61,724 bases of DNA from Anaerolineae bacterium (GTDB lineage: Bacteria; Chloroflexota; Anaerolineae; Aggregatilineales; Phototrophicaceae): assembly GCA_034437755.1 (NCBI GenBank), contig DAOTTV010000078.1, forward strand, positions 64,001 to 125,724, read 5' to 3'. The notes under the pieces were generated by a model that saw only the letters and a list, made by a program, of their open reading frames with translations, was not told where the DNA came from and searched no databases. Shown piece by piece: positions 1 to 32,212 of this stretch (positions are counted from its first letter, which is position 1; the number at the start of each line of letters is the position of its first letter). The position numbers were made by a program, and so were the translations under genes.

Positions 1-669
1 ATCGATGACGTTCGCAGTACGGCGATGTATCGCGCTGAGATGGTGAAAGTACTTGTGGCGCGTGCCCTGCGTCATATCGCTGATGAACGCCATGACACCC
101 TACCCCATAATCCAGCAATGCTGTGGGATCACAATCGCGCGCGGGTCAATGGCAATCATCTACCGGCCCAAACCCGACACGATAACGATGCACCAATCAG
201 CACGACCATCAACGGCAAACAGGTGACCCTTAAGACAGGACAGAGCAAAACGCTGTTACACTGGTTGCGAGAAGATGCCGGTTTAACAGGCACAAAAGAA
301 GGTTGTGCCGAAGGCGAATGTGGCGCATGTACGGTTTTCCTCGATGGTGTGGCGGTGATGGCGTGCATGGTCGCGGCACCCCGCGCTCACGATGCGACAA
401 TCGTCACCGTCGAAGGCTTGCAACAAGATGAACACCTGCACCCGATTCAGGAAGCCTTCATCGATCATGCGGCGGTGCAATGTGGCTACTGCACGCCGGG
501 ATTTTTGATGTCCGGCGCGAAGCTCCTCGAAGAGCATCCACACCCGACCGACGAACAAATTCAGCAGAGCATCAGCGGGAATCTCTGTCGTTGTACGGGA
601 TATTACAAGATTATCGATGCGTTTAAGCAAGCGCGTGAACACGACGCACAAACACAAAAGGAGAGCTAA
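1..669 (+). CDS. Small subunit of a xanthine dehydrogenase / CO dehydrogenase-family enzyme, 5'-truncated by the window edge. The tail of a CoxM-like FAD-binding domain is fused to a CoxS-like [2Fe-2S] subunit.
   Basis: Frame 1 is open from nt 1. '[21 protein letters not shown]' resembles the conserved C-terminus of CoxM/XdhB FAD subunits. '[20 protein letters not shown]' and '[15 protein letters not shown]' are the two cysteine clusters of 2Fe-2S subunits. Stop TAA at 667-669. Confidence 0.8.
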
Positions 670-1262: not shown

Positions 1263-1340
1263 ACCAAAACTTTCACAGCTTGCTCTTTTCAACTCTATTG
1301 CGTTGAAGACAACTGGTTTCAAAAGGCTTACGCCTTTTGC

Positions 1341-1387
1341 AGGGTGTGGGACAGCGTCCCACTTTGCACAGACTTTACACATGAGCC
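1341..1387 (+). promoter_or_regulatory. Copy 1 of a conserved 47-nt cis-element (AGGGTGTGGGA-N4-GTCCCAC-N-TTGCACA-N5-TACACATGAGCC) containing the palindrome GTGGGAC-N3-GTCCCAC.
   Basis: About 40 of 47 positions are identical to a second copy at 3482-3528. Both copies are followed by AACGTCAAA. The differences fall in the hairpin loop, plus one C-to-T change in the stem that would keep G-U pairing in RNA. Confidence 0.55.
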
Positions 1388-1716
1388 TTTGAAAAAAGGG
1401 AACGTCAAAAACTTTTGCTTTTTTGAGCGTATAGCGGTAACTACTCAGCCCTCACCCTAAATCCCTCTCCCGACCGCTACTATGTGTCTAGGAGAGGGAC
1501 TTCAACCGTGCTTGTCTTGAGGGCAGAAGCTGGCGTCAATCAATTGACCGGAGTAGTTACGTATAGCGTTCAAAATGAACAAGGTCAAGGAACGACAGTT
1601 CCTTGTGGGAGTGCGGGGGCAAAGCCCCTGCAACAAAAACCACGCGAAATCCCAAAGAGCCTGTTGTTTTACAGATCGCGCTCATGCAGACGAGACATAA
1701 CGAAAGGCGGATACCC

Positions 1717-3474
1717 GTGGATAGAACAGTACCGAAGATGGGCGGCAACGAGATCCAACTGTATATGCGGACATATTACTCACTTCTACGGTCGAGTGTC
1801 ACTGTGAAGATCGAGACGCTGGTCGAGAGTCATCTGGGCATTGAATCGTCACTGCACATCAACGGTGCGGACTATGAACCGGATGTATCGGCTCTGATTT
1901 ATAGCGCCTTGCGCCTGCCCCCCTGTGTGAAAGATACCAAGACCGTCCTCATCGGGCAGACGGAACAGTCATTCATCGAGGCTGGGTATACCGATATTCC
2001 CAGTTGGCGGCGGGTTTATGCGCCGGGGCGACGGCGGCGGATACACCATGATGGGCATGATATGCTAGTGGTGTATATCGTCAGCCGCTCTGACATTGAC
2101 GATTTGATCCCGATTTTGACGGCTTATCAGATCGAATGGAACAAGTTGCACCAACTCCTGCGGGATAGTGTGGCGCGTCAATTCCTCGACGAGAGGCGCG
2201 GACAACGTGAACGCCTGAGTGACTCCGAAATCGACGAACTCGCCAGCCACTTGAAGATGCTCCCGAAGGATTTACGCCGTCTCGAAATCGTGTGGCAGGA
2301 TGATTTTGTCGATACCATGCTAGAAGTCGCCGACGAACGGCGCGATATGGGAGTCGCTTTGATCTCGGGATCACTGGCAGATTATCGACGGGCAACCGCC
2401 TCATGGTGGAGCGAGTTGCGCCGCAACGTGATGGATGCCGGCGGGCCGGATGTCGAAAAGCGCCCGCTTTACTTCGTATCTAGCAACACACATTCGATTG
2501 TCAACTTGCTGACGGGCTTCGCCCGCCGCTATGAGCAGAGTCTTGTCGAATACGTCAAGAAGTATAACTACGAATCTCTGCTTGCCGAATACGAAGACAT
2601 CCAGACGCAATCACACAAGAGCCTTGAGAATTTCTTATATTATGTGCTGGGGCGGTTTCTCAACGATGAGGAGACCAACGCGCTCGAAGAACTGCGCGAA
2701 GCAGAGCACAACGTCGGTATCTATCGCGTGCCGAATCGTCATGGCTTCGAAATTGAAGCGCAGGTGATCGAACTCAACGAGTTACAACCGGAATGGTTAG
2801 ACACCCGCTTGCCCGCTAATTTCGATCTCAACACGATTTTGACCAGTGACGCGCTCATCTTGAATATCGATTATCCTTTGGGGATGGCGGCTTACGAGAT
2901 TCTGAGCCGCATCACCGAGCGCAACAGTCGTATCCACGGCGTGTATATCATGGGCAAAGCCGCCACGCTCAACGGGCGTGTGGGCGATGTCATGATTCCC
3001 AACGTCATCCACGATGAACACTCGCAGAATACGTATCTGTTCGATAATTGCTTCCATGCCAACGATGTGAACCCTTACATCGGGTTCGGTAACGTGCTGG
3101 ATAACCAGAAGGCGATCACCGCGCTGGGAACATTTTTACAGAATAGCGATTACATGACGGTTTTCTATCGTGAGGGTTACACTGATATTGAGATGGAAGG
3201 CGGCCCCTACCTCTCGGCAGTGTACGAAGCCTTCCGTCCGAAGCGGCATCCCTACAACGAAATCGTCAATTTGTATCAAGTGCCGTTCGACATCGGCTTC
3301 CTGCATTATGCGTCTGATACGCCGATGAAGAAGGGACAGAACCTAGGTGCGGGTAGCCTGAGTTATACCGGTGTTGAACCGACATATGCGTCAGCGATTG
3401 CGATTCTGCGGCGCATCTTCAAGCAGGAGATCGGGCGTTTGCGCTCGGATGCCGTCGCCATCGCCGGTGTGTAG
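1717..3474 (+). CDS. Uncharacterised two-domain protein. The roughly 380 aa N-terminal domain has no recognisable family. The roughly 230 aa C-terminal domain has a purine/uridine-phosphorylase / MTA-nucleosidase (PNP_UDP_1) fold.
   Basis: The long ORF runs 1603-3474. The start is uncertain: GTG at 1717 is preceded by AAAGGCGGA, and ATG 1684 and ATG 1738 are alternatives. The C-terminal motifs appear in the order typical of the phosphorylase superfamily: 'YPLGMAAYEIL', 'IMGKAATLNGRVGDVMIP', and 'DIEMEGGPYLSAVYEA', which carries the E-M-E ribose-binding motif. Confidence 0.6.
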   Translation: MDRTVPKMGGNEIQLYMRTYYSLLRSSVTVKIETLVESHLGIESSLHINGADYEPDVSALIYSALRLPPCVKDTKTVLIGQTEQSFIEAGYTDIPSWRRVYAPGRRRRIHHDGHDMLVVYIVSRSDIDDLIPILTAYQIEWNKLHQLLRDSVARQFLDERRGQRERLSDSEIDELASHLKMLPKDLRRLEIVWQDDFVDTMLEVADERRDMGVALISGSLADYRRATASWWSELRRNVMDAGGPDVEKRPLYFVSSNTHSIVNLLTGFARRYEQSLVEYVKKYNYESLLAEYEDIQTQSHKSLENFLYYVLGRFLNDEETNALEELREAEHNVGIYRVPNRHGFEIEAQVIELNELQPEWLDTRLPANFDLNTILTSDALILNIDYPLGMAAYEILSRITERNSRIHGVYIMGKAATLNGRVGDVMIPNVIHDEHSQNTYLFDNCFHANDVNPYIGFGNVLDNQKAITALGTFLQNSDYMTVFYREGYTDIEMEGGPYLSAVYEAFRPKRHPYNEIVNLYQVPFDIGFLHYASDTPMKKGQNLGAGSLSYTGVEPTYASAIAILRRIFKQEIGRLRSDAVAIAGV

Positions 3475-3553: not shown

Positions 3554-5782
3554 GTGACCCAAGAAAAAACCATCGTCGTCGGGCAATCCGTCAAGCGCAT
3601 TGATGCGCGGGGCAAAGTCACAGGGGAGACCCCCTACCCCGGCGACATCGACATTGACGACCAACTGTGGCTGAAGATCAAATTCAGCGATCATGCCCAC
3701 GCACGCATCACAGCGATCGATACCAGCCAAGCAGAAGCAATCGCGGGCGTTGTCGCTGTGTATACGGCGGCGGATATTCCCTGTAATGAATACGGACTAG
3801 TCATCAAAGATCAGCCTGTGATTTGCGGAGTCGGGAGCGATCGCGTCGGCGCGGATGTGGTGCGCTGTTACATGGATTACGTCGCCGTCGTCGTGGCAGA
3901 GACGCCAGCGATAGCCGCCGAAGCGGTGAAGCACATTCATGTTGATTATGAGGTGCTTGCGGGCGTATACGACCCTGAAGAAGCGATGCAAGCAGGCGCA
4001 CCCCAGCTTCACCCCGATACCCCGCATAATCTCGTCGCGCAGTATCGCATTCGTAAGGGCGAGATGGACGGCATCTGGGAGCAGTGTGCCGCGATTGTCG
4101 AGGATACTTATGAGACGACATGGCAGGAACACGCTTATCTACAGCCCGAAGCTGGCTTGAGCTACATTGATGATGAGGGGCGCGTGACGGTCGTTGTCGC
4201 CGGACAGTGGAATCACGAAGATCAGGAGCAAATCTATCACGCGCTGGATTTACCGCCAGAACAAGTGCGCGTGGTCTACCCCGCGATTGGCGGCGCGTTC
4301 GGCGGGCGTGAGGATATGTCGGTGCAAATCGTGCTGGCAGTGGCGGCGTACAAGCTCCGTCGTCCCGTGAAAACTGTATGGTCACGCGAAGAGTCGATTT
4401 TGAACCACCATAAACGACACCCGATCACAATCCATGCCAGATGGGGCGCAGACGCTGACGGACGGGTGCTAGCCGTCGACGCGCGGGTGATTGGCGATGC
4501 GGGTGCGTACAATTACACATCGAACAAGGTGCTGGGCAACGCACAGTTGACAGCGACCGGCGCGTATGACATCCCGAATATTCACATCGATACCTACACG
4601 GTCTACACCAACAATATTCCCTGTGGCGCATTTCGGGGCTTCGGGGCGGTGCAGGCGCTCTTCGCCGCCGAGGGACAGATGAACAAACTCGCGGACGCGC
4701 TCGGCATTGATCCGGTCGAAATCCGACGGCGCAATGTCTTTCGCGAAGGCAGTTTGCAATCAACGGGAACGCCCCTGCCTAAGGGCGTGTCGATCGCGAA
4801 AGTAGTCGAGGCCTGTGGCTTACAGAGCTACTGGCAACAGGATGCAGACGGCACGTTTGCCCTGCCACCAATGGAGCAACCAGCTGACCCCAGCAAGCGG
4901 CGCGGTATCGGCTTTGCGTGTGGCTATAAGAATGTCGGTTACAGCTTCGGCTTCCCAGAGCGCAGTTGGGCGATGATCGAACTACATGGCAGGAGAGAGA
5001 TCGAAGAAGTAGTCGTGCGGCATGGCGGCGCGGATGTCGGGCAGGGCGCGCACACAGTCATCGTGCAGATGACAGCCGAGGCGACCGGCGTTGAGATCGA
5101 CAAGGTGCGGCTAGTAACCGCCGATACCGCCGAACATGACACATCCGGCAGTGCTTCGGCATCACGTTTGACCTTCATGGCGGGCAACGCGATTCGGGGT
5201 GCGGCGGAGAAAGCGCTCGCTGCATGGCAAAACGAAGATCGTCCGGCAACGGGTGAGTTTCTGTATCGTCCGCCCAAGACGACCCCCTTCGACCCTCTAA
5301 CGGGGCGCAGTGAGCCGAACTTCGCCTACGGGTATGTGGCGCAGGCAGTCGAGGTCGAAGTCGATATCGAAACCGGACAGATCCAGGTCACACGTGTGGT
5401 CAGCGCTCATGACGTTGGCAAAGCCGTGAACCCGCAACTGATACAGGGACAGATTGAAGGCGGGGTCGTGCAAGCCCTGGGCTATGCACTGATGGAGTAT
5501 CTCGTCAGCGAACAAGGGCGCATCAAGAATCCCTATCTATCAACTTATATCATCCCGACGGTGCTGGATGTTCCGGTCGAGGTGAAATCGGTGATTTTAG
5601 AATATCCCGATCCGATCGGGCCGTGGGGGGCGCGTGGCATGGCAGAGATGCCGATGCTCCCGCTGACACCGGCAATCGCGGCGGCAGTGCATCAGGCGAC
5701 TGGTGTTTGGTTAAACGCCCAACCGTTCACGCCGGATCGGGTCGTTATGGCTCTGCGTCAACGGGGCATTGGTGTTATTTAA
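3554..5782 (+). CDS. Molybdopterin-binding large subunit of a xanthine dehydrogenase / aldehyde oxidase-family enzyme (CoxL/XdhA-like).
   Basis: 742 aa. GTG start with RBS GAGGAAGAGAG. The a/b-hammerhead N-terminus is 'VGQSVKRIDARGKVTGETPY'. 'GGAFGGRED' and 'GFRGFG' are Mo-cofactor-binding motifs. Its size fits the family. Confidence 0.9.
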   Translation: MTQEKTIVVGQSVKRIDARGKVTGETPYPGDIDIDDQLWLKIKFSDHAHARITAIDTSQAEAIAGVVAVYTAADIPCNEYGLVIKDQPVICGVGSDRVGADVVRCYMDYVAVVVAETPAIAAEAVKHIHVDYEVLAGVYDPEEAMQAGAPQLHPDTPHNLVAQYRIRKGEMDGIWEQCAAIVEDTYETTWQEHAYLQPEAGLSYIDDEGRVTVVVAGQWNHEDQEQIYHALDLPPEQVRVVYPAIGGAFGGREDMSVQIVLAVAAYKLRRPVKTVWSREESILNHHKRHPITIHARWGADADGRVLAVDARVIGDAGAYNYTSNKVLGNAQLTATGAYDIPNIHIDTYTVYTNNIPCGAFRGFGAVQALFAAEGQMNKLADALGIDPVEIRRRNVFREGSLQSTGTPLPKGVSIAKVVEACGLQSYWQQDADGTFALPPMEQPADPSKRRGIGFACGYKNVGYSFGFPERSWAMIELHGRREIEEVVVRHGGADVGQGAHTVIVQMTAEATGVEIDKVRLVTADTAEHDTSGSASASRLTFMAGNAIRGAAEKALAAWQNEDRPATGEFLYRPPKTTPFDPLTGRSEPNFAYGYVAQAVEVEVDIETGQIQVTRVVSAHDVGKAVNPQLIQGQIEGGVVQALGYALMEYLVSEQGRIKNPYLSTYIIPTVLDVPVEVKSVILEYPDPIGPWGARGMAEMPMLPLTPAIAAAVHQATGVWLNAQPFTPDRVVMALRQRGIGVI

Positions 5783-5842
5783 ACGTTATCCAAATCATGA
5801 TATGATAGGCGTAACGCACCGGATATTTTTCATGAGATAGCG

Positions 5843-7231
5843 ATGAAACTCAAACAAGCATTCGCGGTTGTTCGTGGCGATGTCGTGGCATTCGTCGGCG
5901 CAGGTGGCAAGACATCAGCGTTGATTGGCTTAGGCTATGAACTGGCAGATACAAGCTGGCGTGTGCTGGCGACGACGACCACATACCTTGATGAAGAACA
6001 ATTACAACTGATACCACACGCTGTGCGCGTACAATCCGCACCGCATATTATCTCACAAGCCCTGTCGGAGCATGGCTTCGTCTTTCTGTACGACGCTATC
6101 CGGCATGGCAAAGTATACGGCGCATCCATTGAGCAGACCAAGACCCTGCTTGATACTGTCGATAGCGATGTTCTGCTGGTCGAAGCCGATGGCGCGGACG
6201 GTCTCGATTTCAAAGCGCCCTACGCACACGAGCCGACCATCCCCAAAGAAGCCTCGCTTGTGATTCCGGTCGCGTCTTTGAGCATTCTCAATAAGCCACT
6301 CGATGAAGAACACGTCTATAACCCGCAGGCGATGATCGATAAGTACGGCTTTTATCATGGCAGTGGCGTACGCTCGCCGTGGATTGCACAGGTGTTGCGC
6401 GATGAAGAATTAGGATTGCGCGGCATCCCAGAAAAAGCCCGCGTGACTGTTTTCATCAATCAAACGCCCGACGACGGCTATTTGCGCGGTCGCGCCCGCT
6501 TGATTGCTCAGTTAACGCTCAAAACACCGCGCATTCACAGCGTCGCGCTCGGCTCAGTGCGGGCGGCTGACCCCGTGTGCGAAGTCCAGCGATCGGTCGG
6601 AGCGATTGTGCTGGCAGGCGGGCAAGCATCGCGCATGGGACAACCCAAGCAACTGCTCCCGTGGGCAGATGGCAAGACGATCATCGAGCATATCACAACG
6701 CAGTTGATACGTGCGCGCATCGGTCAGATTAACGTTGTGACGGGGTACTATGCCGATCAAGTGAAGCAGGTGGTTAAGCCACTCGGCGTGCAGGTCGTAC
6801 ATAATCGCGCTCATCGCACGGGTGATATGCTCTCATCGTTGAAAGCCGGTTTACGCGCCATGCCCGATCACGTTGCCGCGACCCTGGTCGTCCTCGGTGA
6901 CCAGCCCCGCATCCAACCCCACATCATCTACAAGGTACTGATGGCGTATGCCGAAGGCAAGGGCGACATCATCGCGCCGAGCTTCAACATGCGCCGCGGA
7001 CACCCGATCTTGATCGACCGCAAATACTGGGCAGAATTCCTCGACCTACGCAACGACAAATCACCGCGTGATGTCATCAACGCGCACAACGACGACATTT
7101 ACTATATTAACGTCGATACTGACAGCATCCTGCGCGATATTGATACGCCGGCAGACTATGAAGACGAACGCTTACGCGCCGGTCTGCGGCGCATTGATCC
7201 GCATTATCGCCAGCAATCGGACGCATCTTAG
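5843..7231 (+). CDS. Fusion protein. The N-terminus resembles YqeC, an accessory protein of selenium-dependent molybdenum hydroxylases. The C-terminus is a MocA/MobA-like molybdenum-cofactor cytidylyl/nucleotidyltransferase.
   Basis: The N-terminal 'VVAFVGAGGKTSALIGLG..RVLATTTTY' is the YqeC-type P-loop signature. The C-terminal 'AIVLAGGQASRMGQPKQLLPW..GKTII' and 'VVLGDQP' are the MobA/MocA NTP-transferase motifs. The gene follows the Mo-subunit gene after a 60-nt gap. Confidence 0.7.
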   Translation: MKLKQAFAVVRGDVVAFVGAGGKTSALIGLGYELADTSWRVLATTTTYLDEEQLQLIPHAVRVQSAPHIISQALSEHGFVFLYDAIRHGKVYGASIEQTKTLLDTVDSDVLLVEADGADGLDFKAPYAHEPTIPKEASLVIPVASLSILNKPLDEEHVYNPQAMIDKYGFYHGSGVRSPWIAQVLRDEELGLRGIPEKARVTVFINQTPDDGYLRGRARLIAQLTLKTPRIHSVALGSVRAADPVCEVQRSVGAIVLAGGQASRMGQPKQLLPWADGKTIIEHITTQLIRARIGQINVVTGYYADQVKQVVKPLGVQVVHNRAHRTGDMLSSLKAGLRAMPDHVAATLVVLGDQPRIQPHIIYKVLMAYAEGKGDIIAPSFNMRRGHPILIDRKYWAEFLDLRNDKSPRDVINAHNDDIYYINVDTDSILRDIDTPADYEDERLRAGLRRIDPHYRQQSDAS

Positions 7232-7277: not shown

Positions 7278-7514
7278 TTAGCCTTTGAACCATTTGATCA
7301 AGCGCGACACCACGCTCCGTCGATTATCGAGGCTTTGCTTATACTCGAGTTGTAATTGCTTTGTCAGATGCTCTAACTCGTTCAGTCGCATGCGTGCCCC
7401 GTTGACCACGACCCAATCACCATCGACTGCCCGTAAATCGCGGGGACGACGATTGTAGAGCTTTTCATAGGCTTCGGCGTAGTTCCGCATCAAGATCTCT
7501 GGGCTTTGCACCAT
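7278..7514 (-). CDS. Small conserved hypothetical protein (78 aa, charged, probably helical).
   Basis: Clean ORF divergent from punA, with an intergenic promoter region upstream. Confidence 0.4.
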   Translation of the reverse strand: MVQSPEILMRNYAEAYEKLYNRRPRDLRAVDGDWVVVNGARMRLNELEHLTKQLQLEYKQSLDNRRSVVSRLIKWFKG

Positions 7515-7663: not shown

Positions 7664-8509
7664 ATGACCACGAGTTATACACGCGACGATTACCAATCCG
7701 CAGTCGATGTGATCCAGACACGTATCAGCACCGCCCCAACCATCGGCTTAGTGCTGGGGTCTGGCCTGGGCACACTCGCCGATACCCTTGCCGATCGGGT
7801 AGTAATCCCTTACAGCGATTTACCGCACTTCCCACAGTCAACCGTGCATGGGCACTCTGGCAATCTCGTCATCGGCACCTTAGAGGGACACACGGTGGTC
7901 GCACAGCAGGGGCGCGTTCACTTTTACGAAGGCTACACGATGCAACAGGTCACATTCCCGATTCGGGTGATGAGCTTGCTCGGCATCGAGACCATCATCC
8001 TCACGAATGCCGCTGGCGGTATCAATCCGGCGTATGCGGTTGGCGATTTGATGCTGTTGAACGATCACATCAACTTTTTGGGGATGGCGGGGCAACACCC
8101 GCTGATTGGTAAAAACGACGATACGCTGGGGCCGCGCTTCCTCGGCATGTCGCAGACCTATGATCGGCACTTGCGCGCGACCGCCCGCGCCATTGCCGAG
8201 GCACATGATATTCCCCTGCACGAGGGCGTATATACGTCGCTCGCCGGCCCGACCTTCGAGACACCGGCAGAAGTGCGGCTCTTACGCACCCTAGGCACGG
8301 ATGCGGTCGGCATGTCAACCGTACATGAAGTGATCGTCGCGCGCCATGCGGGTTTGCGCGTGCTGGCTTGCTCGGGCATCACCAACGTCGCCATCGACGA
8401 AATTGATAGCGATGCCGACGCTAATCACGAAGAAGTGTTAGAAGCCGGTCAGGTCATCGTCCCGCGCCTGACAACTGTCCTCAAAGGTGTTTTGCAGAGA
8501 ATGGACTAA
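7664..8509 (+). CDS. punA: Purine nucleoside phosphorylase (PNP-I family, inosine/guanosine type).
   Basis: RBS AAGGAG 7 nt upstream. 'GLVLGSGLG', 'TNAAGGINP' and 'SLAGPTFETPAE..GMSTVHEV' are canonical PunA/XapA motifs. Confidence 0.9.
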   Translation: MTTSYTRDDYQSAVDVIQTRISTAPTIGLVLGSGLGTLADTLADRVVIPYSDLPHFPQSTVHGHSGNLVIGTLEGHTVVAQQGRVHFYEGYTMQQVTFPIRVMSLLGIETIILTNAAGGINPAYAVGDLMLLNDHINFLGMAGQHPLIGKNDDTLGPRFLGMSQTYDRHLRATARAIAEAHDIPLHEGVYTSLAGPTFETPAEVRLLRTLGTDAVGMSTVHEVIVARHAGLRVLACSGITNVAIDEIDSDADANHEEVLEAGQVIVPRLTTVLKGVLQRMD

Positions 8510-8513
8510 CCTG

Positions 8514-9320
8514 ATGAATTTTATCTTCTTTGCGATTGAATGGGCGGCAATCCCGCTTCATATTCTGCTGGCAGTGATCGGTGTGTGGTACGGGTATCAG
8601 TTCATCAACGCCCGCTACGCTATCCGCTCAACGTACTTCGAACTAGAGCGCGATATTGCCCGCAACAAGCAAGCCAACGCCATCACCGCCATCATCATCT
8701 TGATCGAAATCGGCGTGTTGATCTTTGGCGTGCAAATGCGGGCTGTGCCCTATCTTGAGAGTGAGCGCGATTTCGATGAGCAAATTGCCCAGCAAGAAGC
8801 CCAACAAGTGCGCGATGGCGTTTTCGTGACAGACACGCCGCAGGCGGTCGCGCAGGGGATCGAGTTCGACGAAGGCACCCCCCTCGCAGAGAGTGAAATC
8901 GGGTTCATCCCCACACCGACACTCACCCCGACTCCGGTTGGGACGATTTTGCCCAACCCACCGCCGACACAGGGCTGTGTCGATGAAGCGGCGAATTTAC
9001 AAATTCCGGCGAACGGTATGCGCGTCTTCGCGCCGATTCCGGTGCGGGGTACTGCTTTCACCGATCAATTTTCGAGCGCGACGATTGAAATCAGCGGCCC
9101 CACGACCAACAATCAATTTTTCGTGGTCGATCGCTTGACCGCGCCCATCTTACAAACCAGCGATTTCAGCCAGTTTAATCCAGCAGGGTACGAGCCGGGA
9201 CGCTATGAATTTCGGCTGATGGTATTCGACCTGCGCGGAGATGTACTCGTCGCGTCGTGCCTCGTGAACATCTACATCAGCGCACCAGTGACCACGCCCA
9301 CACCCACACCCCGACGTTAG
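8514..9320 (+). CDS. Membrane protein with N-terminal TM helices and a Thr/Pro-rich extracytoplasmic region; hypothetical.
   Basis: Hydrophobic N-terminus with TPTLTPTP and TTPTPTPRR linkers. The start is ambiguous between GTG 8487 and ATG 8514. Confidence 0.5.
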   Translation: MNFIFFAIEWAAIPLHILLAVIGVWYGYQFINARYAIRSTYFELERDIARNKQANAITAIIILIEIGVLIFGVQMRAVPYLESERDFDEQIAQQEAQQVRDGVFVTDTPQAVAQGIEFDEGTPLAESEIGFIPTPTLTPTPVGTILPNPPPTQGCVDEAANLQIPANGMRVFAPIPVRGTAFTDQFSSATIEISGPTTNNQFFVVDRLTAPILQTSDFSQFNPAGYEPGRYEFRLMVFDLRGDVLVASCLVNIYISAPVTTPTPTPRR

Positions 9321-27985: not shown

Positions 27986-28669
27986 ATGACATTACGAGTA
28001 AGCGCGTTCTTGCTTCTCTTACTGGGCTTGACAGCCTGCTTAGGGATGCCACAACAAATTGAATACACCATCGAAGTGCCGGTCACGCGTGAGGTCACCC
28101 GCGTCGTGACAGTCGTCGTTGGCGAAAACCAGACCCTCGCTGATGACCAACCTACAGCTATTCACACGCCCACCGCCCTCCCTGTGACAGTCACCCCAGC
28201 GGCTAGCCCCTCGCCCGAGCCGTTCCCATCCCCCCAAGCGGGTCGCTTTGTCGTCGCCCAGCAACGATTCCAGAATGGAGCGATGCTCTGGTTGCAACCG
28301 ATTGACCAAATCTGGGTGCTGAGTATCGACGATGAGGATAACCAAATCTGGGAAATTTACGAAGATAATTTTGAAGAAGGAATGCCGGAGTTTGATCCTG
28401 AGATACAATCACCGCGATCCGGGTTATACCAGCCCGTGCGCGGCTTCGGCATGTTATGGCGACAAAATGAGAGCGTCCGCGATCAATTAGGCTGGGCACT
28501 GGGGGAAGAAGTTGGTTACACAGCCAATTACGAGTATCATTATGGTGGGACTGTCGAAAATGGCGAATACGTGCAAGGTCCCGGCTATCATCTGGTGCAG
28601 ACGATTTCAGGTGAGATTTACCGATTTAACGAAGGTATCATGACGTGGGAAGTTATAAATGATGGATAA
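27986..28669 (+). CDS. Lipoprotein of unknown function.
   Basis: Signal peptide with lipobox 'LLGLTAC'. A Thr/Pro/Ser linker precedes a globular domain. Confidence 0.65.
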   Translation: MTLRVSAFLLLLLGLTACLGMPQQIEYTIEVPVTREVTRVVTVVVGENQTLADDQPTAIHTPTALPVTVTPAASPSPEPFPSPQAGRFVVAQQRFQNGAMLWLQPIDQIWVLSIDDEDNQIWEIYEDNFEEGMPEFDPEIQSPRSGLYQPVRGFGMLWRQNESVRDQLGWALGEEVGYTANYEYHYGGTVENGEYVQGPGYHLVQTISGEIYRFNEGIMTWEVINDG

Positions 28670-31184
28670 TCTACGCGAATGGGACATCAGTCCCGCATCG
28701 CCCGTCGCGCTACAACTAGCGGCGGATGCGCGGTTAAACCGGACGAGCTATACGAATGACCAGACGTGGGACGTACGCATCGGGCGCGGTGACACGCCGG
28801 CAATTGCCCTGCACACCAAATACGGCTTTCGCGTGGGCTTGGCGAGCCTCGTGCCGATGTGGTTACATGACGGGCGCATCATCTACCAGGCGCAGACCTA
28901 CCACCGGCCCAGCGCCATCACGCACTTTGCGCCCAATTACATCGCCGCCAACGCGAAGATTCTGTCATCTATCCGCCTACACGCCGAGCATATCGCGCTC
29001 AGTTCACAGGCGATTGGTGGGATTTATACGTTGCACAATACGAGCGATAAAGCCGTGACCCTGCGCTTTGAACTCTTCGGGCATGTGGGGGCACGCGGCA
29101 AAGAGCAGAAGCTAGCGATTATCACGATGGCGGATGGCGGACACGCGCTCTCGATGACATCTATGCCGACCTTGAGTCCGGTTGTCTTGATGGAAGGCGG
29201 CACGGCGAGTGATCTCAGCAGTCGCTCGGCAAGTCCCAAAATCGGCACAGACATCAGCATTCCGGCGGCAGGTACAGTGACCATGCGCTGGGTACACGTC
29301 GGGCAGGGGGATGTGCGCCGGTCGTTACAAGAGGCGCGGCAATGGCTCGCACAAGATTGGACGGCGTTTCGCGCCGCGATCGACCATGCCGCGCGCGCGA
29401 TTCCACAGATACAGACCAGCAATCTCGATTGGGATTTGGCGATTGCGGCATCGTATAATTACGCCCATCAAGCCGTGCTTCGTCCGGCGGGTATCCTCCC
29501 GCATGAGACGCTCATCGCCCAGCGCACGCCAGAAGTGGGCTTCAGCCTTAAGGGGAACGGCACAGATTATCCGCGCACATGGGCGGGGCAAGACCCCTTG
29601 CTGAGCTATATGATCGCGCCGATACTGGGCGCAGAAGGCGTGATTCGCAATTATATTGCCGCTCAGCGCGATGATGGCTACATTGACCTGAAGCCGAGTC
29701 CCTCCGGTGAAAATAGCAACCTGCTCTGCCTGCCGCTTCTGGCGCGTACAGCGTGGCACATCTACTTGCGGACGGAGAATCGCGCGTTCGTCACTGATGT
29801 CTTCCCCGCCCTGCGTCGCTTCTTCGATCATTGGCTCGCGCAAGATGACGACGGCGACGGCTATCCTGAATGGCACGCCGATGCCCAGACAGGCTATGCC
29901 GCCCTGCCGACCTTCGCACCGGCGCGGGATTGGTCACAAGGAGCCGACATCACCACTGTCGAAACGCCGGATTTGCTCGTGTATCTCATCAAGGAAGCCG
30001 AGAGCCTCGCCCAGATGGCGCACCTGCTCAACGATGATGCGGGTGCGCGGCGCTTGCGCGACCAAGCCGATGCCCTGCGCGCCAAGCTAGAAGCCCTATG
30101 GCAAGGCGATCATTACGCCTATCGTGATCGTGATACTGACATCACCACCAACGGCATGATTCTGTTGGAAGAAGGCGCGGGCGATCAAACGCATGTGATC
30201 GATCAAGCCTTAGCCGTGCCCAACCGCCTCATCGTCAAAGTGATCGGCGGTATCTCGCACACACCACAGATCACACTCCACGTCGAAGGCACCGATCATG
30301 AGGGCAACACGATTAGCGAGCAAGCCAGCACCAAACAATTCACATGGATCGACGGACAAGGCGTGTATACGACACAGCGCGTCTTCAGTCATATTCACAC
30401 CATTCGCTGTGATGGTCTGAGTCGTGTCTATCATCTATATACGCGCACGATGGACACCACCGCCCGCGATATCAACGCGCTCTTGCCGTTGTGGGCCGGC
30501 ATCCCCGATGAACGCGCACAATCGCTGGTCAGCTTATTGTCGGACTCAGCGCATTTCCTGCGGGCGAACGGCATCACGATGACGGATGCCAGCGGCGCGT
30601 ACTTTGACCCCAGCAACGCCGACGGTGCCGGTGGCATCTGGCTCTACTGGAACACGATTCTCTGTGAGGGCTTGATCGACAACGGTCAGGGGGCGCTCGC
30701 CAGCGATGTGACCAAAACCATCCTCAAGATGCTGGTTGACGTGCTATCGACCGAGCATGAGTTCGGGCAATTTTATCATAGCGATGTCTCACGCGGGCTG
30801 GGCGAGAAGAATCACATGCTGGGCGTCGCCCCGCTGTTGCTCTTGAATAGACTCTTCGGCGTGCGTGTTATATCATCAGGGCGTGTATGGCTCGATAAAA
30901 CATTTGCATGGGGGCGCGGTGTCACGATTCGCCAGCACGGGGTTTACGTGCGGCGGACGAACAAGCGTATCAAGATTGTCTTTCCATCCGGCTATGAGCA
31001 AGAACTCGACCCAACGCTCGCTGAGGCGCAATATATCGATGACCCGGATGCACAGACCAGACCTACCCCGCCGATGATCGACATCACACGCGCAGACCCG
31101 CAACAGGCAGTTGACACGCGACCAGAGGAAGCAGAGCCAGCACCTGCCCCCCGCGTCATAATCGAAGTAGAATACGAAGACTGA
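28659..31184 (+). CDS. Large six-hairpin (alpha/alpha)6 glycosidase-like protein (GH63 / glycogen-debranching GDE_C-like).
   Basis: 841 aa. 'LLCLPLLARTAWHIY..FPALRRFFDHWLAQDDDGDGYPEW' and 'GIWLYWNTILCEGL' are typical of toroid glycoside hydrolases. The start overlaps the lipoprotein gene by 11 nt. Confidence 0.6.
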   Translation: MMDNLREWDISPASPVALQLAADARLNRTSYTNDQTWDVRIGRGDTPAIALHTKYGFRVGLASLVPMWLHDGRIIYQAQTYHRPSAITHFAPNYIAANAKILSSIRLHAEHIALSSQAIGGIYTLHNTSDKAVTLRFELFGHVGARGKEQKLAIITMADGGHALSMTSMPTLSPVVLMEGGTASDLSSRSASPKIGTDISIPAAGTVTMRWVHVGQGDVRRSLQEARQWLAQDWTAFRAAIDHAARAIPQIQTSNLDWDLAIAASYNYAHQAVLRPAGILPHETLIAQRTPEVGFSLKGNGTDYPRTWAGQDPLLSYMIAPILGAEGVIRNYIAAQRDDGYIDLKPSPSGENSNLLCLPLLARTAWHIYLRTENRAFVTDVFPALRRFFDHWLAQDDDGDGYPEWHADAQTGYAALPTFAPARDWSQGADITTVETPDLLVYLIKEAESLAQMAHLLNDDAGARRLRDQADALRAKLEALWQGDHYAYRDRDTDITTNGMILLEEGAGDQTHVIDQALAVPNRLIVKVIGGISHTPQITLHVEGTDHEGNTISEQASTKQFTWIDGQGVYTTQRVFSHIHTIRCDGLSRVYHLYTRTMDTTARDINALLPLWAGIPDERAQSLVSLLSDSAHFLRANGITMTDASGAYFDPSNADGAGGIWLYWNTILCEGLIDNGQGALASDVTKTILKMLVDVLSTEHEFGQFYHSDVSRGLGEKNHMLGVAPLLLLNRLFGVRVISSGRVWLDKTFAWGRGVTIRQHGVYVRRTNKRIKIVFPSGYEQELDPTLAEAQYIDDPDAQTRPTPPMIDITRADPQQAVDTRPEEAEPAPAPRVIIEVEYED

Positions 31185-31189
31185 TTATT

Positions 31190-32212
31190 ATGGATGAGAC
31201 GATCCACGCATCATTGCCCATTTACGAGTATATTTTGCGAACGACGGCGGATGGTGTCATCATCCTCGCTGATGGCATCATTCAGCATGTGAACCCGGCG
31301 GCGGCGGCGATGCTAGCGATGACGACCGAGACCTGCATCGGCGCTTATCCGCGTGATGTCGCGACGTTTCGTGATAATCCGGCACTGTTGCGGCTCGTCA
31401 CTGGCTCAGGCGAACAACGACTCGACGTTCATCTGCCCCGCAAGCGCATCGCACAGGGACTTGCCGATACACTCGATACGGGCGAGCGCATCGTCCTCCT
31501 GCAAGATGTGACCGAAAAGCGGAGCATCGAAGATCGCCGCGAGATGCTAAGCAAAGCTATCGCGCATGATTTACGCAACCCGATTTCGGCAATCGCTGGC
31601 TTTGCTGATTTAATCCAGCGTTTTGGTAGCCTCAACGCGAACCAGACCAAGTATTACAAGCGCATCAAAGAGACTACGTCCAAATTACACGAGTTGGTTA
31701 AGTCGCTGGTAGACCTCGCGTGGATCGAAGCTGGTATGCCCCTAGAACATCTGCCGATTCGCATTCACGACTTAATCCAGCGAGCTGTGCGCGATCTCAG
31801 TGATCTTGCATCCAAGCGCAACATCGGCATTCTTGTCTCTGTACAAACGCCGCTACCAATCGTCATGGGCGATCCTGATCGCCTGTATATGGTGATTCAC
31901 GCCCTCTTACACAACGCGATTATCTACTCGCCGCCAGAGAGCAACGTCGCCATCCATGCGTGGGGCGATACACATGAACTCTCGTGCAGTGTGGGCGATC
32001 GCGGTTTTGGCATCCTCGATAGCGAGATCGACCTGATTTTCGACCGTATGTATCGCTCGCGCGATGAGCGCGTGCGCGAAGTCGCCGGCGGTGGATTGGG
32101 CTTGACGCTGGCAAAGACGATCGTCACGCGACACGGCGGAGATTTATGGGTGAATAGCATCTTCGACGAAGGAAGCACCTTTATGTTCGTTCTTCCTGTG
32201 GTGGACTTGTGA
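31190..32212 (+). CDS. Cytoplasmic sensor histidine kinase (PAS, HisKA, HATPase_c).
   Basis: H-box 'AIAHDLRNPISAI', N-box 'LLHNAIIYS', and G boxes 'DRGFGI' and 'GGGLGL'. Confidence 0.85.
   Translation: MDETIHASLPIYEYILRTTADGVIILADGIIQHVNPAAAAMLAMTTETCIGAYPRDVATFRDNPALLRLVTGSGEQRLDVHLPRKRIAQGLADTLDTGERIVLLQDVTEKRSIEDRREMLSKAIAHDLRNPISAIAGFADLIQRFGSLNANQTKYYKRIKETTSKLHELVKSLVDLAWIEAGMPLEHLPIRIHDLIQRAVRDLSDLASKRNIGILVSVQTPLPIVMGDPDRLYMVIHALLHNAIIYSPPESNVAIHAWGDTHELSCSVGDRGFGILDSEIDLIFDRMYRSRDERVREVAGGGLGLTLAKTIVTRHGGDLWVNSIFDEGSTFMFVLPVVDL

Follow-up and report, generated by a model that had tools for sequence, protein, structure and literature searches.

The 61,724-nucleotide stretch analysed here (the window; positions 64,001 to 125,724 of contig DAOTTV010000078.1, assembly GCA_034437755.1, from an Anaerolineae bacterium of the Phototrophicaceae) encodes a protein in which a YqeC-like domain is fused to a MocA-like domain, directly beside the molybdenum (Mo)-binding subunit of a xanthine dehydrogenase (XDH)-family hydroxylase. 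The question raised by this locus is whether such a fusion marks a selenium-dependent hydroxylase, as a sequence-only reading of this DNA had proposed. Our analysis suggests that the fusion is probably a bifunctional protein that helps to mature molybdenum hydroxylases whose cofactor is molybdopterin cytosine dinucleotide (MCD), and that the Mo atom more likely carries a sulfido than a selenium ligand.

The fusion is encoded by an intact ATG-to-stop open reading frame (ORF) of 462 amino acids at 5843-7231 on the + strand. The parts of the locus on which the argument turns are as follows.

3554-5782, + strand: Mo-binding large subunit of an XDH-family hydroxylase, 742 amino acids, with Ald_Xan_dh_C, MoCoBD_1 and MoCoBD_2 domains
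5783-5842, no strand: 60-bp junction between the stop of the Mo gene and the start of the fusion; yqeB stands at the equivalent place in relatives
5843-6577, + strand: YqeC domain, fusion residues 1-245, by predicted fold a SIMIBI-class P-loop nucleoside triphosphatase (NTPase)
6602-7165, + strand: MocA-like Mo-cofactor nucleotidyltransferase domain, fusion residues 254-441 (TIGR03310 161.5 bits, PF12804 124.6 bits)

The sequence-only reading had recognized a YqeC signature in the N-terminal half, and we found that this signature is real, with VVAFVGAGGKT at residues 14-24 and RVLATTTT at residues 40-47. When the profile check was made, residues 14-224 matched the YqeC model TIGR03172 at 131 bits (E 4.9e-38), well past the curated cutoff of 73.05, and residues 15-161 matched Pfam PF19842 at 114.8 bits (cutoff 27.6). 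Escherichia coli YqeC is 32% identical to the fusion (E 7e-23). The complete P-loop signature set, namely a GxGGKT Walker A motif, a TTTT strand, hhhhEADG and KAPxxxEPxIP, is present in the fusion, does not vary among 24 orthologues and is also found in E. coli YqeC. The assignment of this half to YqeC therefore stands.

The C-terminal half had been read as a MocA-type cytidylyltransferase, and here the family held while the finer assignment fell short. TIGR03310 (MocA/YgfJ) is by a wide margin the top-scoring family for residues 254-440, at 161.5 bits (E 2.1e-47) compared with about 40 bits for MobA models and 61 bits for PucB, but the score lies below the equivalog cutoff of 186.45. Residues of the same half match the MobA-like NTP-transferase family PF12804 and carry its GG-x-S-RMG and GD-x-P motifs. 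E. coli MocA is 28% identical (E 9e-17 by tblastn and 1e-19 by pairwise BLASTP), and in the alignment the GG-x-S-RMG, G-x-L-S-S and GDQP segments line up. The E. coli matches and the profile scores of both halves are well outside chance expectation. Two segments are said to set the nucleotide specificity of MocA, an assignment for which a literature search returned only unrelated papers; in the fusion the second is MocA-like (GDMLSS, compared with GLLTS) and the first is LAGG rather than the TAAG of E. coli MocA.

We then asked if the YqeC half looks like a working domain. An AlphaFold model of residues 1-250 was confident, with a mean predicted local distance difference test (pLDDT) of 85.5 and a predicted template modelling score (pTM) of 0.86, and the predicted fold places the domain in the SIMIBI (signal recognition particle, MinD and BioD) class of P-loop NTPases. 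This class also includes UreG, HypB, CooC and MeaB. Sequence searches of the PDB matched no solved structure to the YqeC domain. The Walker A residues G19, G21, G22, K23 and T24 and the E114-A115-D116 motif are invariant in 24 orthologues, and a 15-sequence alignment of the domain holds 53 invariant positions, these two motifs among them. Mean pairwise identity within the clade is 63.4% for the YqeC half and 64.3% for the MocA half. Judged from these alignments, the two halves appear to be under the same constraint.

The fusion is not unusual among Chloroflexota. A homologue search of 5.8 billion proteins returned 1,203 matching clusters, essentially all from Chloroflexota. The best 120 of these come from Phototrophicaceae, Aggregatilineales and Anaerolineae, are 61-98% identical to the query, and in 120 of 120 cases contain both PF19842 and PF12804. 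An identical protein was also found in microbial-mat metagenomes and in the metagenome-assembled genome (MAG) GCA_964509265.1. When the YqeC domain was used as the query of an exhaustive profile search, 4,891 clusters at 50% identity were recovered; among the nearest 150, 68 are full YqeC-MocA fusions, 15 are shorter and have a partial MocA, and 51 are stand-alone. Two larger architectures were also recovered: P0324, a 726-residue YqeB-YqeC-MocA triple fusion (locus L014, 123-2303; MAG GCA_041579715.1) with Chloroflexota as the source of its closest YqeB relatives, and P0373, a 672-residue YqeC-MocA-MocA protein. By the Rosetta-stone argument, these two proteins are evidence for joint action of YqeB, YqeC and MocA in maturation. 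Homologues already carry the names 'selenium cofactor biosynthesis protein YqeC' at NCBI and 'molybdenum cofactor cytidylyltransferase' at JGI, although our literature search found no paper that discusses the fusion. The architecture is thus ordinary and already catalogued, and the window contributes a new member, not a new kind of system.

Since YqeB is the partner by which selenium dependence is usually recognized, we looked for it in the window and at related loci (numbered L001 onward). According to Haft and Self (2008), YqeB (TIGR03309) is the primary marker of selenium-dependent molybdenum hydroxylases and is restricted to selD-positive genomes, and according to Peng et al. YqeB and YqeC jointly mark the selenium trait while YqeC alone does not. 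The 61.7-kb window contains no match to TIGR03309 among the NCBIfam profiles, and tblastn with E. coli YqeB and four Chloroflexota YqeB sequences found nothing there. Profile scans and tblastn likewise found no SelD, and no SelA-, SelB-, NifS- or YedF-like selenium genes were seen; YqeC is therefore present in the window without its marker partner YqeB. Eight of nine clade loci have no SelD or TIGR03309 domain within 10 kb on either side, and SelD was absent from every locus of this clade that we examined. In E. coli YqeB, TIGR03309 maps to residues 271-526 and residues 19-252 are XdhC-like; in this lineage, sequences close to the fusion match the XdhC-like half and no other part of the protein. 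An XdhC-type chaperone was considered as a sign of a sulfur ligand and dropped, as YqeB-positive loci also encode XdhC.

Comparison with relatives showed where yqeB would be expected. The Mo gene stop and the fusion start lie 61-162 bp apart, with no YqeB between them, in the window, L006, L010 and L013, whereas the gap is 799-1786 bp and holds YqeB in L018, L020, L023, L062, L064 and L090. YqeB likewise lies between the Mo gene and the fusion in L101. Two of these loci match the window operon gene for gene with yqeB added: L090 (DUF6909 56%, Mo subunit 68.5%, the two fusion domains 52% and 48%, and purine nucleoside phosphorylase (PNP) 63% identical) and L101 (fusion domains 62% and 65%, Mo subunit 68%, DUF6909 60%). 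With fusion domains this similar, L101 falls inside the clade of the window. In L015, L016, L017, L018 and L019 yqeB lies immediately 5' of yqeC or of the fused gene, often with an overlap. Because close relatives (L101, L090 and L018) keep yqeB in this slot ahead of the fusion, the ancestral operon carried the gene. A single loss at the base of the clade can be ruled out since L101, inside the clade, retains the gene; replacement of YqeB by the DUF6909 protein can also be ruled out since both are present in L062, L090 and L101.

The setting of the fusion varies within the clade. Orthologues 66-68% identical to it lie among unrelated genes, away from XDH genes, in L011 and L100, and in L012 and L102 the fusion directly follows DUF6909 with no Mo or FAD/FeS (flavin adenine dinucleotide and iron-sulfur) subunit gene found in the fetched flanks; in these two, DUF6909 and the fusion have thus been retained without neighbouring hydroxylase genes. 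At these last two loci (L012 202-3908 and L102 6896-11386) a metallophosphoesterase gene (Metallophos), the small ORF described below, DUF6909 and yqeC-mocA stay adjacent. The motifs of the fusion are intact at the loci that lack yqeB. Persistence of the fusion both without yqeB and without XDH structural genes speaks against a strict need for a neighbouring YqeB in its role. As the locus rearranges often, loss and relocation of yqeB look the same from the locus alone.

YqeB itself is common in this part of the tree. Using the YqeB domain of P0324 as query we found 6,840 homologues, the best 120 of which are stand-alone proteins of about 268 residues from Anaerolineae, Anaerolineales, Ardenticatenaceae and other Chloroflexota; this search therefore indicates that the selenium-trait marker is common in Anaerolineae. 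Of 80 metagenomic YqeB loci, 22 include SelD in the stretch that was fetched. A metagenome scan with a Chloroflexota YqeB profile, aimed at a relocated yqeB of this clade, gave best matches 45-61% identical to the outgroup YqeB. When PLSDB plasmids were searched with E. coli SelD by tblastn, 176 records matched, and those listed included no Chloroflexota. In the part of Table S1 of Peng et al. (2016) used here, Anaerolinea thermophila, Caldilinea aerophila and an oral Chloroflexi taxon are SelD+/YqeB+/YqeC+ and SelD is present in most of the sequenced Chloroflexi shown. The 'YqeB+' calls in that study come from TBLASTN with the entire E. coli YqeB, a protein that is XdhC-like over its N-terminal half, and should be read with caution for Chloroflexi; our P0324 search shows genuine YqeB in Anaerolineae independently of them. 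The earlier statement that such an arrangement is not commonly documented in Chloroflexota is thus contradicted, at the level of catalogued sequences, by the roughly 1,200 fusion clusters already named by NCBI and JGI, by the abundance of YqeB in Anaerolineae and by the three SelD+/YqeB+/YqeC+ taxa in that part of the table.

The Mo subunit was examined for signs of selenium dependence as well. Its Ald_Xan_dh_C, MoCoBD_1 and MoCoBD_2 domains, together with the FAD and 2Fe-2S domains of its partner, place it in the XDH/aldehyde oxidase family. Its best NCBIfam match is pucD at 578.6 bits (cutoff 783), and it scores 447 bits against Se_dep_XDH (TIGR03311), which does not reach the cutoff of 830.45. 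Because every equivalog model scores below its cutoff we did not assign a substrate. Among solved structures the nearest is that of Eubacterium barkeri nicotinate dehydrogenase (3HRD), with 309.8 bits for chain A and 166.2 bits for chain B; bovine and Rhodobacter XDH come after it, at about 210-225 bits.

In our working model the two domains would act in succession. The C-terminal domain would most likely transfer cytidine monophosphate (CMP) from cytidine triphosphate (CTP) onto Mo-molybdopterin to form MCD. The YqeC NTPase domain would then, through nucleotide binding or hydrolysis, drive hand-off of the finished cofactor, which is the most likely role for it by analogy with MobB, UreG and MeaB. 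The recipient may be an XdhC-type chaperone, encoded upstream in relatives, or the apo form of the Mo subunit, and the immediate client would be the adjacent FAD/FeS and Mo hydroxylase, whose gene surroundings, with the PNP and what is probably a nucleosidase, are those of purine salvage and catabolism. YqeC is linked physically to the formation of MCD by its repeated fusion with MocA, the triple fusion with YqeB included; in addition, yqeC and mocA are neighbours in E. coli and Clostridioides difficile. Use of MCD by the neighbouring hydroxylase, which the sequence-only reading had suggested, is well supported by the MocA-type half and the recurrent fusion, and we regard it as very likely. 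A sulfido ligand seems the more likely one, since relatives have a yqeB at this locus and the window does not.

The pairing resembles several known systems. E. coli YqeC (b2876) and MocA/YgfJ (b2877) belong to the same two families, with TIGR03172 and TIGR03310 as best models, and yqeB, yqeC and mocA are adjacent between xdhABC and xdhD in a purine-catabolism region, in line with the sequence-only reading. In E. coli, however, yqeC and mocA are separate, divergently transcribed and beside yqeB, whereas the window has one polypeptide and no yqeB nearby, and E. coli MocA passes the TIGR03310 cutoff (214 bits) while the MocA half of the fusion does not. The Chloroflexota operons L015, L016, L018, L090 and L101 and the triple fusion P0324 have the same fusion architecture as the window. 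In L090 and L101 the Mo subunit is 68-69%, DUF6909 56-60% and the fusion domains 48-65% identical to those of the window; these five operons differ in having a TIGR03309-type YqeB just 5' of the fusion, often overlapping, where the window has a 60-bp spacer. The accessory system of selenium-dependent hydroxylases (Haft and Self 2008; Enterococcus faecalis EF2563-EF2570; C. difficile) shares YqeC, MocA/YgfJ and an XDH-family client with the window, but its defining SelD and YqeB were not found there. An analogous pairing or fusion of a molybdenum cofactor nucleotidyltransferase with a small P-loop NTPase accessory domain is seen in MobA-MobB, the bifunctional molybdopterin guanine dinucleotide synthesis protein (NF011056). 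Bacillus subtilis PucABCDE shares an XdhC-like (PucA-type) chaperone and a MobA-like (PucB-type) transferase, and its PucD is the best NCBIfam match of the Mo subunit; in contrast to the Puc system all scores are below equivalog cutoffs, PucB has no YqeC domain, and in the lineage of the window a single fused protein carries the FAD and FeS parts.

Several observations weigh against the working model. The ancestral system carried the selenium-trait marker pair, and since genes move within the clade a yqeB may lie at another site of the same genome. The equivalog model passed by the N-terminal half is itself named 'selenium cofactor biosynthesis protein YqeC'. The nearest solved relative of the Mo subunit, E. 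barkeri nicotinate dehydrogenase, reportedly carries selenium at Mo, which keeps a selenium reading alive, though the similarity may be mere phylogeny. The CTP specificity of the MocA domain is unproven, judging from its score below the TIGR03310 cutoff and its LAGG segment. To our knowledge no YqeC protein has a known biochemical function, and we know of no established route by which the labile selenium ligand is inserted into molybdenum hydroxylases.

These points bear most directly on the alternative that the operon encodes a selenium-dependent hydroxylase, with YqeC-MocA and a YqeB and SelD encoded elsewhere installing labile selenium on the MCD cofactor. The TIGR03172 score, genuine YqeB directly 5' of the fusion in the orthologous operons L101, L090, L018, L020 and L062, the abundance of YqeB in Anaerolineae with SelD linked in a part of the loci, the SelD seen in most Chloroflexi in that part of Table S1 (Peng et al. 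2016), the nicotinate dehydrogenase similarity, and the ease with which this locus rearranges are all consistent with it. Moreover, yqeB and yqeC are unlinked in C. difficile, where yqeC adjoins mocA (PMC11448449). Set against this, neither YqeB nor SelD is in the window, yqeB is gone from its conserved slot in four loci, and the Se_dep_XDH score is little more than half its cutoff. The earlier reading took YqeC as a mark of selenium dependence, but the domain is insufficient on its own account (Peng et al.), and in C. difficile deletion of yqeB copies the selD mutant phenotype while deletion of yqeC has none (PMC11448449). With YqeB missing from the slot and nothing selenium-linked in the window, we consider selenium dependence in the source organism possible but rather unlikely, and the selenium ligand that had been suggested is not established. 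The alternative as a whole is likewise rather improbable.

It is also unlikely, to a similar degree, that the fusion is a general MCD-maturation factor serving several molybdenum hydroxylases, with its place beside the Mo subunit a matter of history. The orthologues among unrelated genes (L011 and L100) and those that follow DUF6909 with no hydroxylase genes in the fetched flanks (L012 and L102) would fit such a factor, whereas in most sampled loci, the window included, the fusion is immediately 3' of the Mo subunit gene and co-oriented with it. That the YqeC half became a decaying relic after the loss of yqeB, doing no more than lengthen a functional MocA at its N-terminal end, would agree with the local absence of yqeB and the silent yqeC deletion of C. 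difficile. We consider it very improbable, given the 53 invariant positions that include Walker A and EAD, a level of conservation equal to that of the MocA domain, and the confidently predicted fold. Our preferred explanation remains an MCD-maturation factor whose immediate client is the adjacent, probably sulfido-type hydroxylase.

The other genes of the operon and its immediate surroundings are as follows.

1-669, + strand: 3' part of the FAD-binding and 2Fe-2S subunit, cut by the window edge, with CO_deh_flav_C-like, Fer2 and Fer2_2 domains
670-1074, + strand: small ORF of 134 amino acids, a single hydrophobic stretch, tail rich in Lys and Glu, no significant family match
1717-3474, + strand: DUF6909 protein, start uncertain (1603, 1717, 1738 or 1804)
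7664-8509, + strand: PNP (NF006054 371 bits and TIGR01700 342 bits, both above cutoff)
8487-9320, + strand: unassigned 277-amino-acid protein directly after the PNP, no Pfam or NCBIfam match

The first ORF is open from base 1, starts inside CO_deh_flav_C-like sequence and has matches to XdhC/PucE-type FeS subunits. Its full-length orthologue in Phototrophicus methaneseepsis has 490 amino acids with FAD_binding_5, CO_deh_flav_C, Fer2 and Fer2_2 domains, and that genome encodes an XdhC-type chaperone and a metallophosphoesterase upstream of the same operon. In this fused subunit the FAD domains come first and the FeS domains second (window 1-669, + strand; L006 3687-5159). The TIGR02963 XdhA model has them the other way round, and the FeS part of the protein aligns with the N-terminus of that model. 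The small ORF is kept at the same position, with 131-138 amino acids and 36-40% identity by tblastn, in L006, L101 and L102, and it always comes after the FAD/FeS subunit gene wherever the latter is present. The DUF6909 protein is probably a divergent nucleosidase or phosphorylase of the nucleoside phosphorylase-I (NP-I) type; a PDB sequence search gave no match for it.

Between the small ORF and DUF6909 lies an AT-richer gap of about 640 bp (about 1075-1716) that is rich in short palindromes. Rfam found no riboswitch or other RNA in this gap, and an inverted repeat like that of a miniature inverted-repeat transposable element was unsupported, with no copy of the repeat elsewhere in the window. 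Five independent assemblies with an identical fusion protein (L001-L005) all end at window positions 1332-2522, four of the five at 1332-1633, so that their ends fall in this gap or in the first 800 bases of DUF6909.

Downstream of the fusion the PNP is kept in L006, L090, L100 and L102, and a protein of about 270 amino acids follows it in the window and in the same four loci (39% identity in L090). A 78-amino-acid ORF on the opposite strand (7278-7514, - strand), between the fusion and the PNP, was called in L001-L007 and again in L100, there between a TrkA-type gene and the PNP. The 277-amino-acid protein is followed by panB and panC, and the other 50 kb or so of the window holds housekeeping and unrelated genes. 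Among these are an MGH1-like glycoside hydrolase (28659-31184, + strand) and a histidine kinase (31190-32212, + strand), a pair that recurs near the fusion in L011 (5444-9028, - strand), which suggests that local synteny blocks are shuffled within the clade.

Taken together, this clade is a natural uncoupling of YqeC from YqeB: the fusion occurs with yqeB (L101 and L090), without it (the window and P. methaneseepsis), or without hydroxylase genes. If the genomes that lack yqeB at this locus truly lack both yqeB and selD, then YqeC may act generally, as an NTPase that helps MocA to deliver MCD, and not as a selenium-specific protein, a proposal that we put forward tentatively and hold somewhat less likely to be right than wrong. 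Were it true, 'selenium cofactor biosynthesis protein YqeC' would be a misleading database label. In either case a YqeC annotation by itself is no ground for calling a hydroxylase selenium-dependent. The paper describing P. methaneseepsis and its supplements make no mention of selenium, xanthine or molybdenum; this organism is in culture, which makes the question of YqeC and YqeB directly testable. The patchy yqeB and constant YqeC-MocA of this clade thus offer a comparative and experimental route to the role of YqeC, in selenium insertion or in the handling of MCD.

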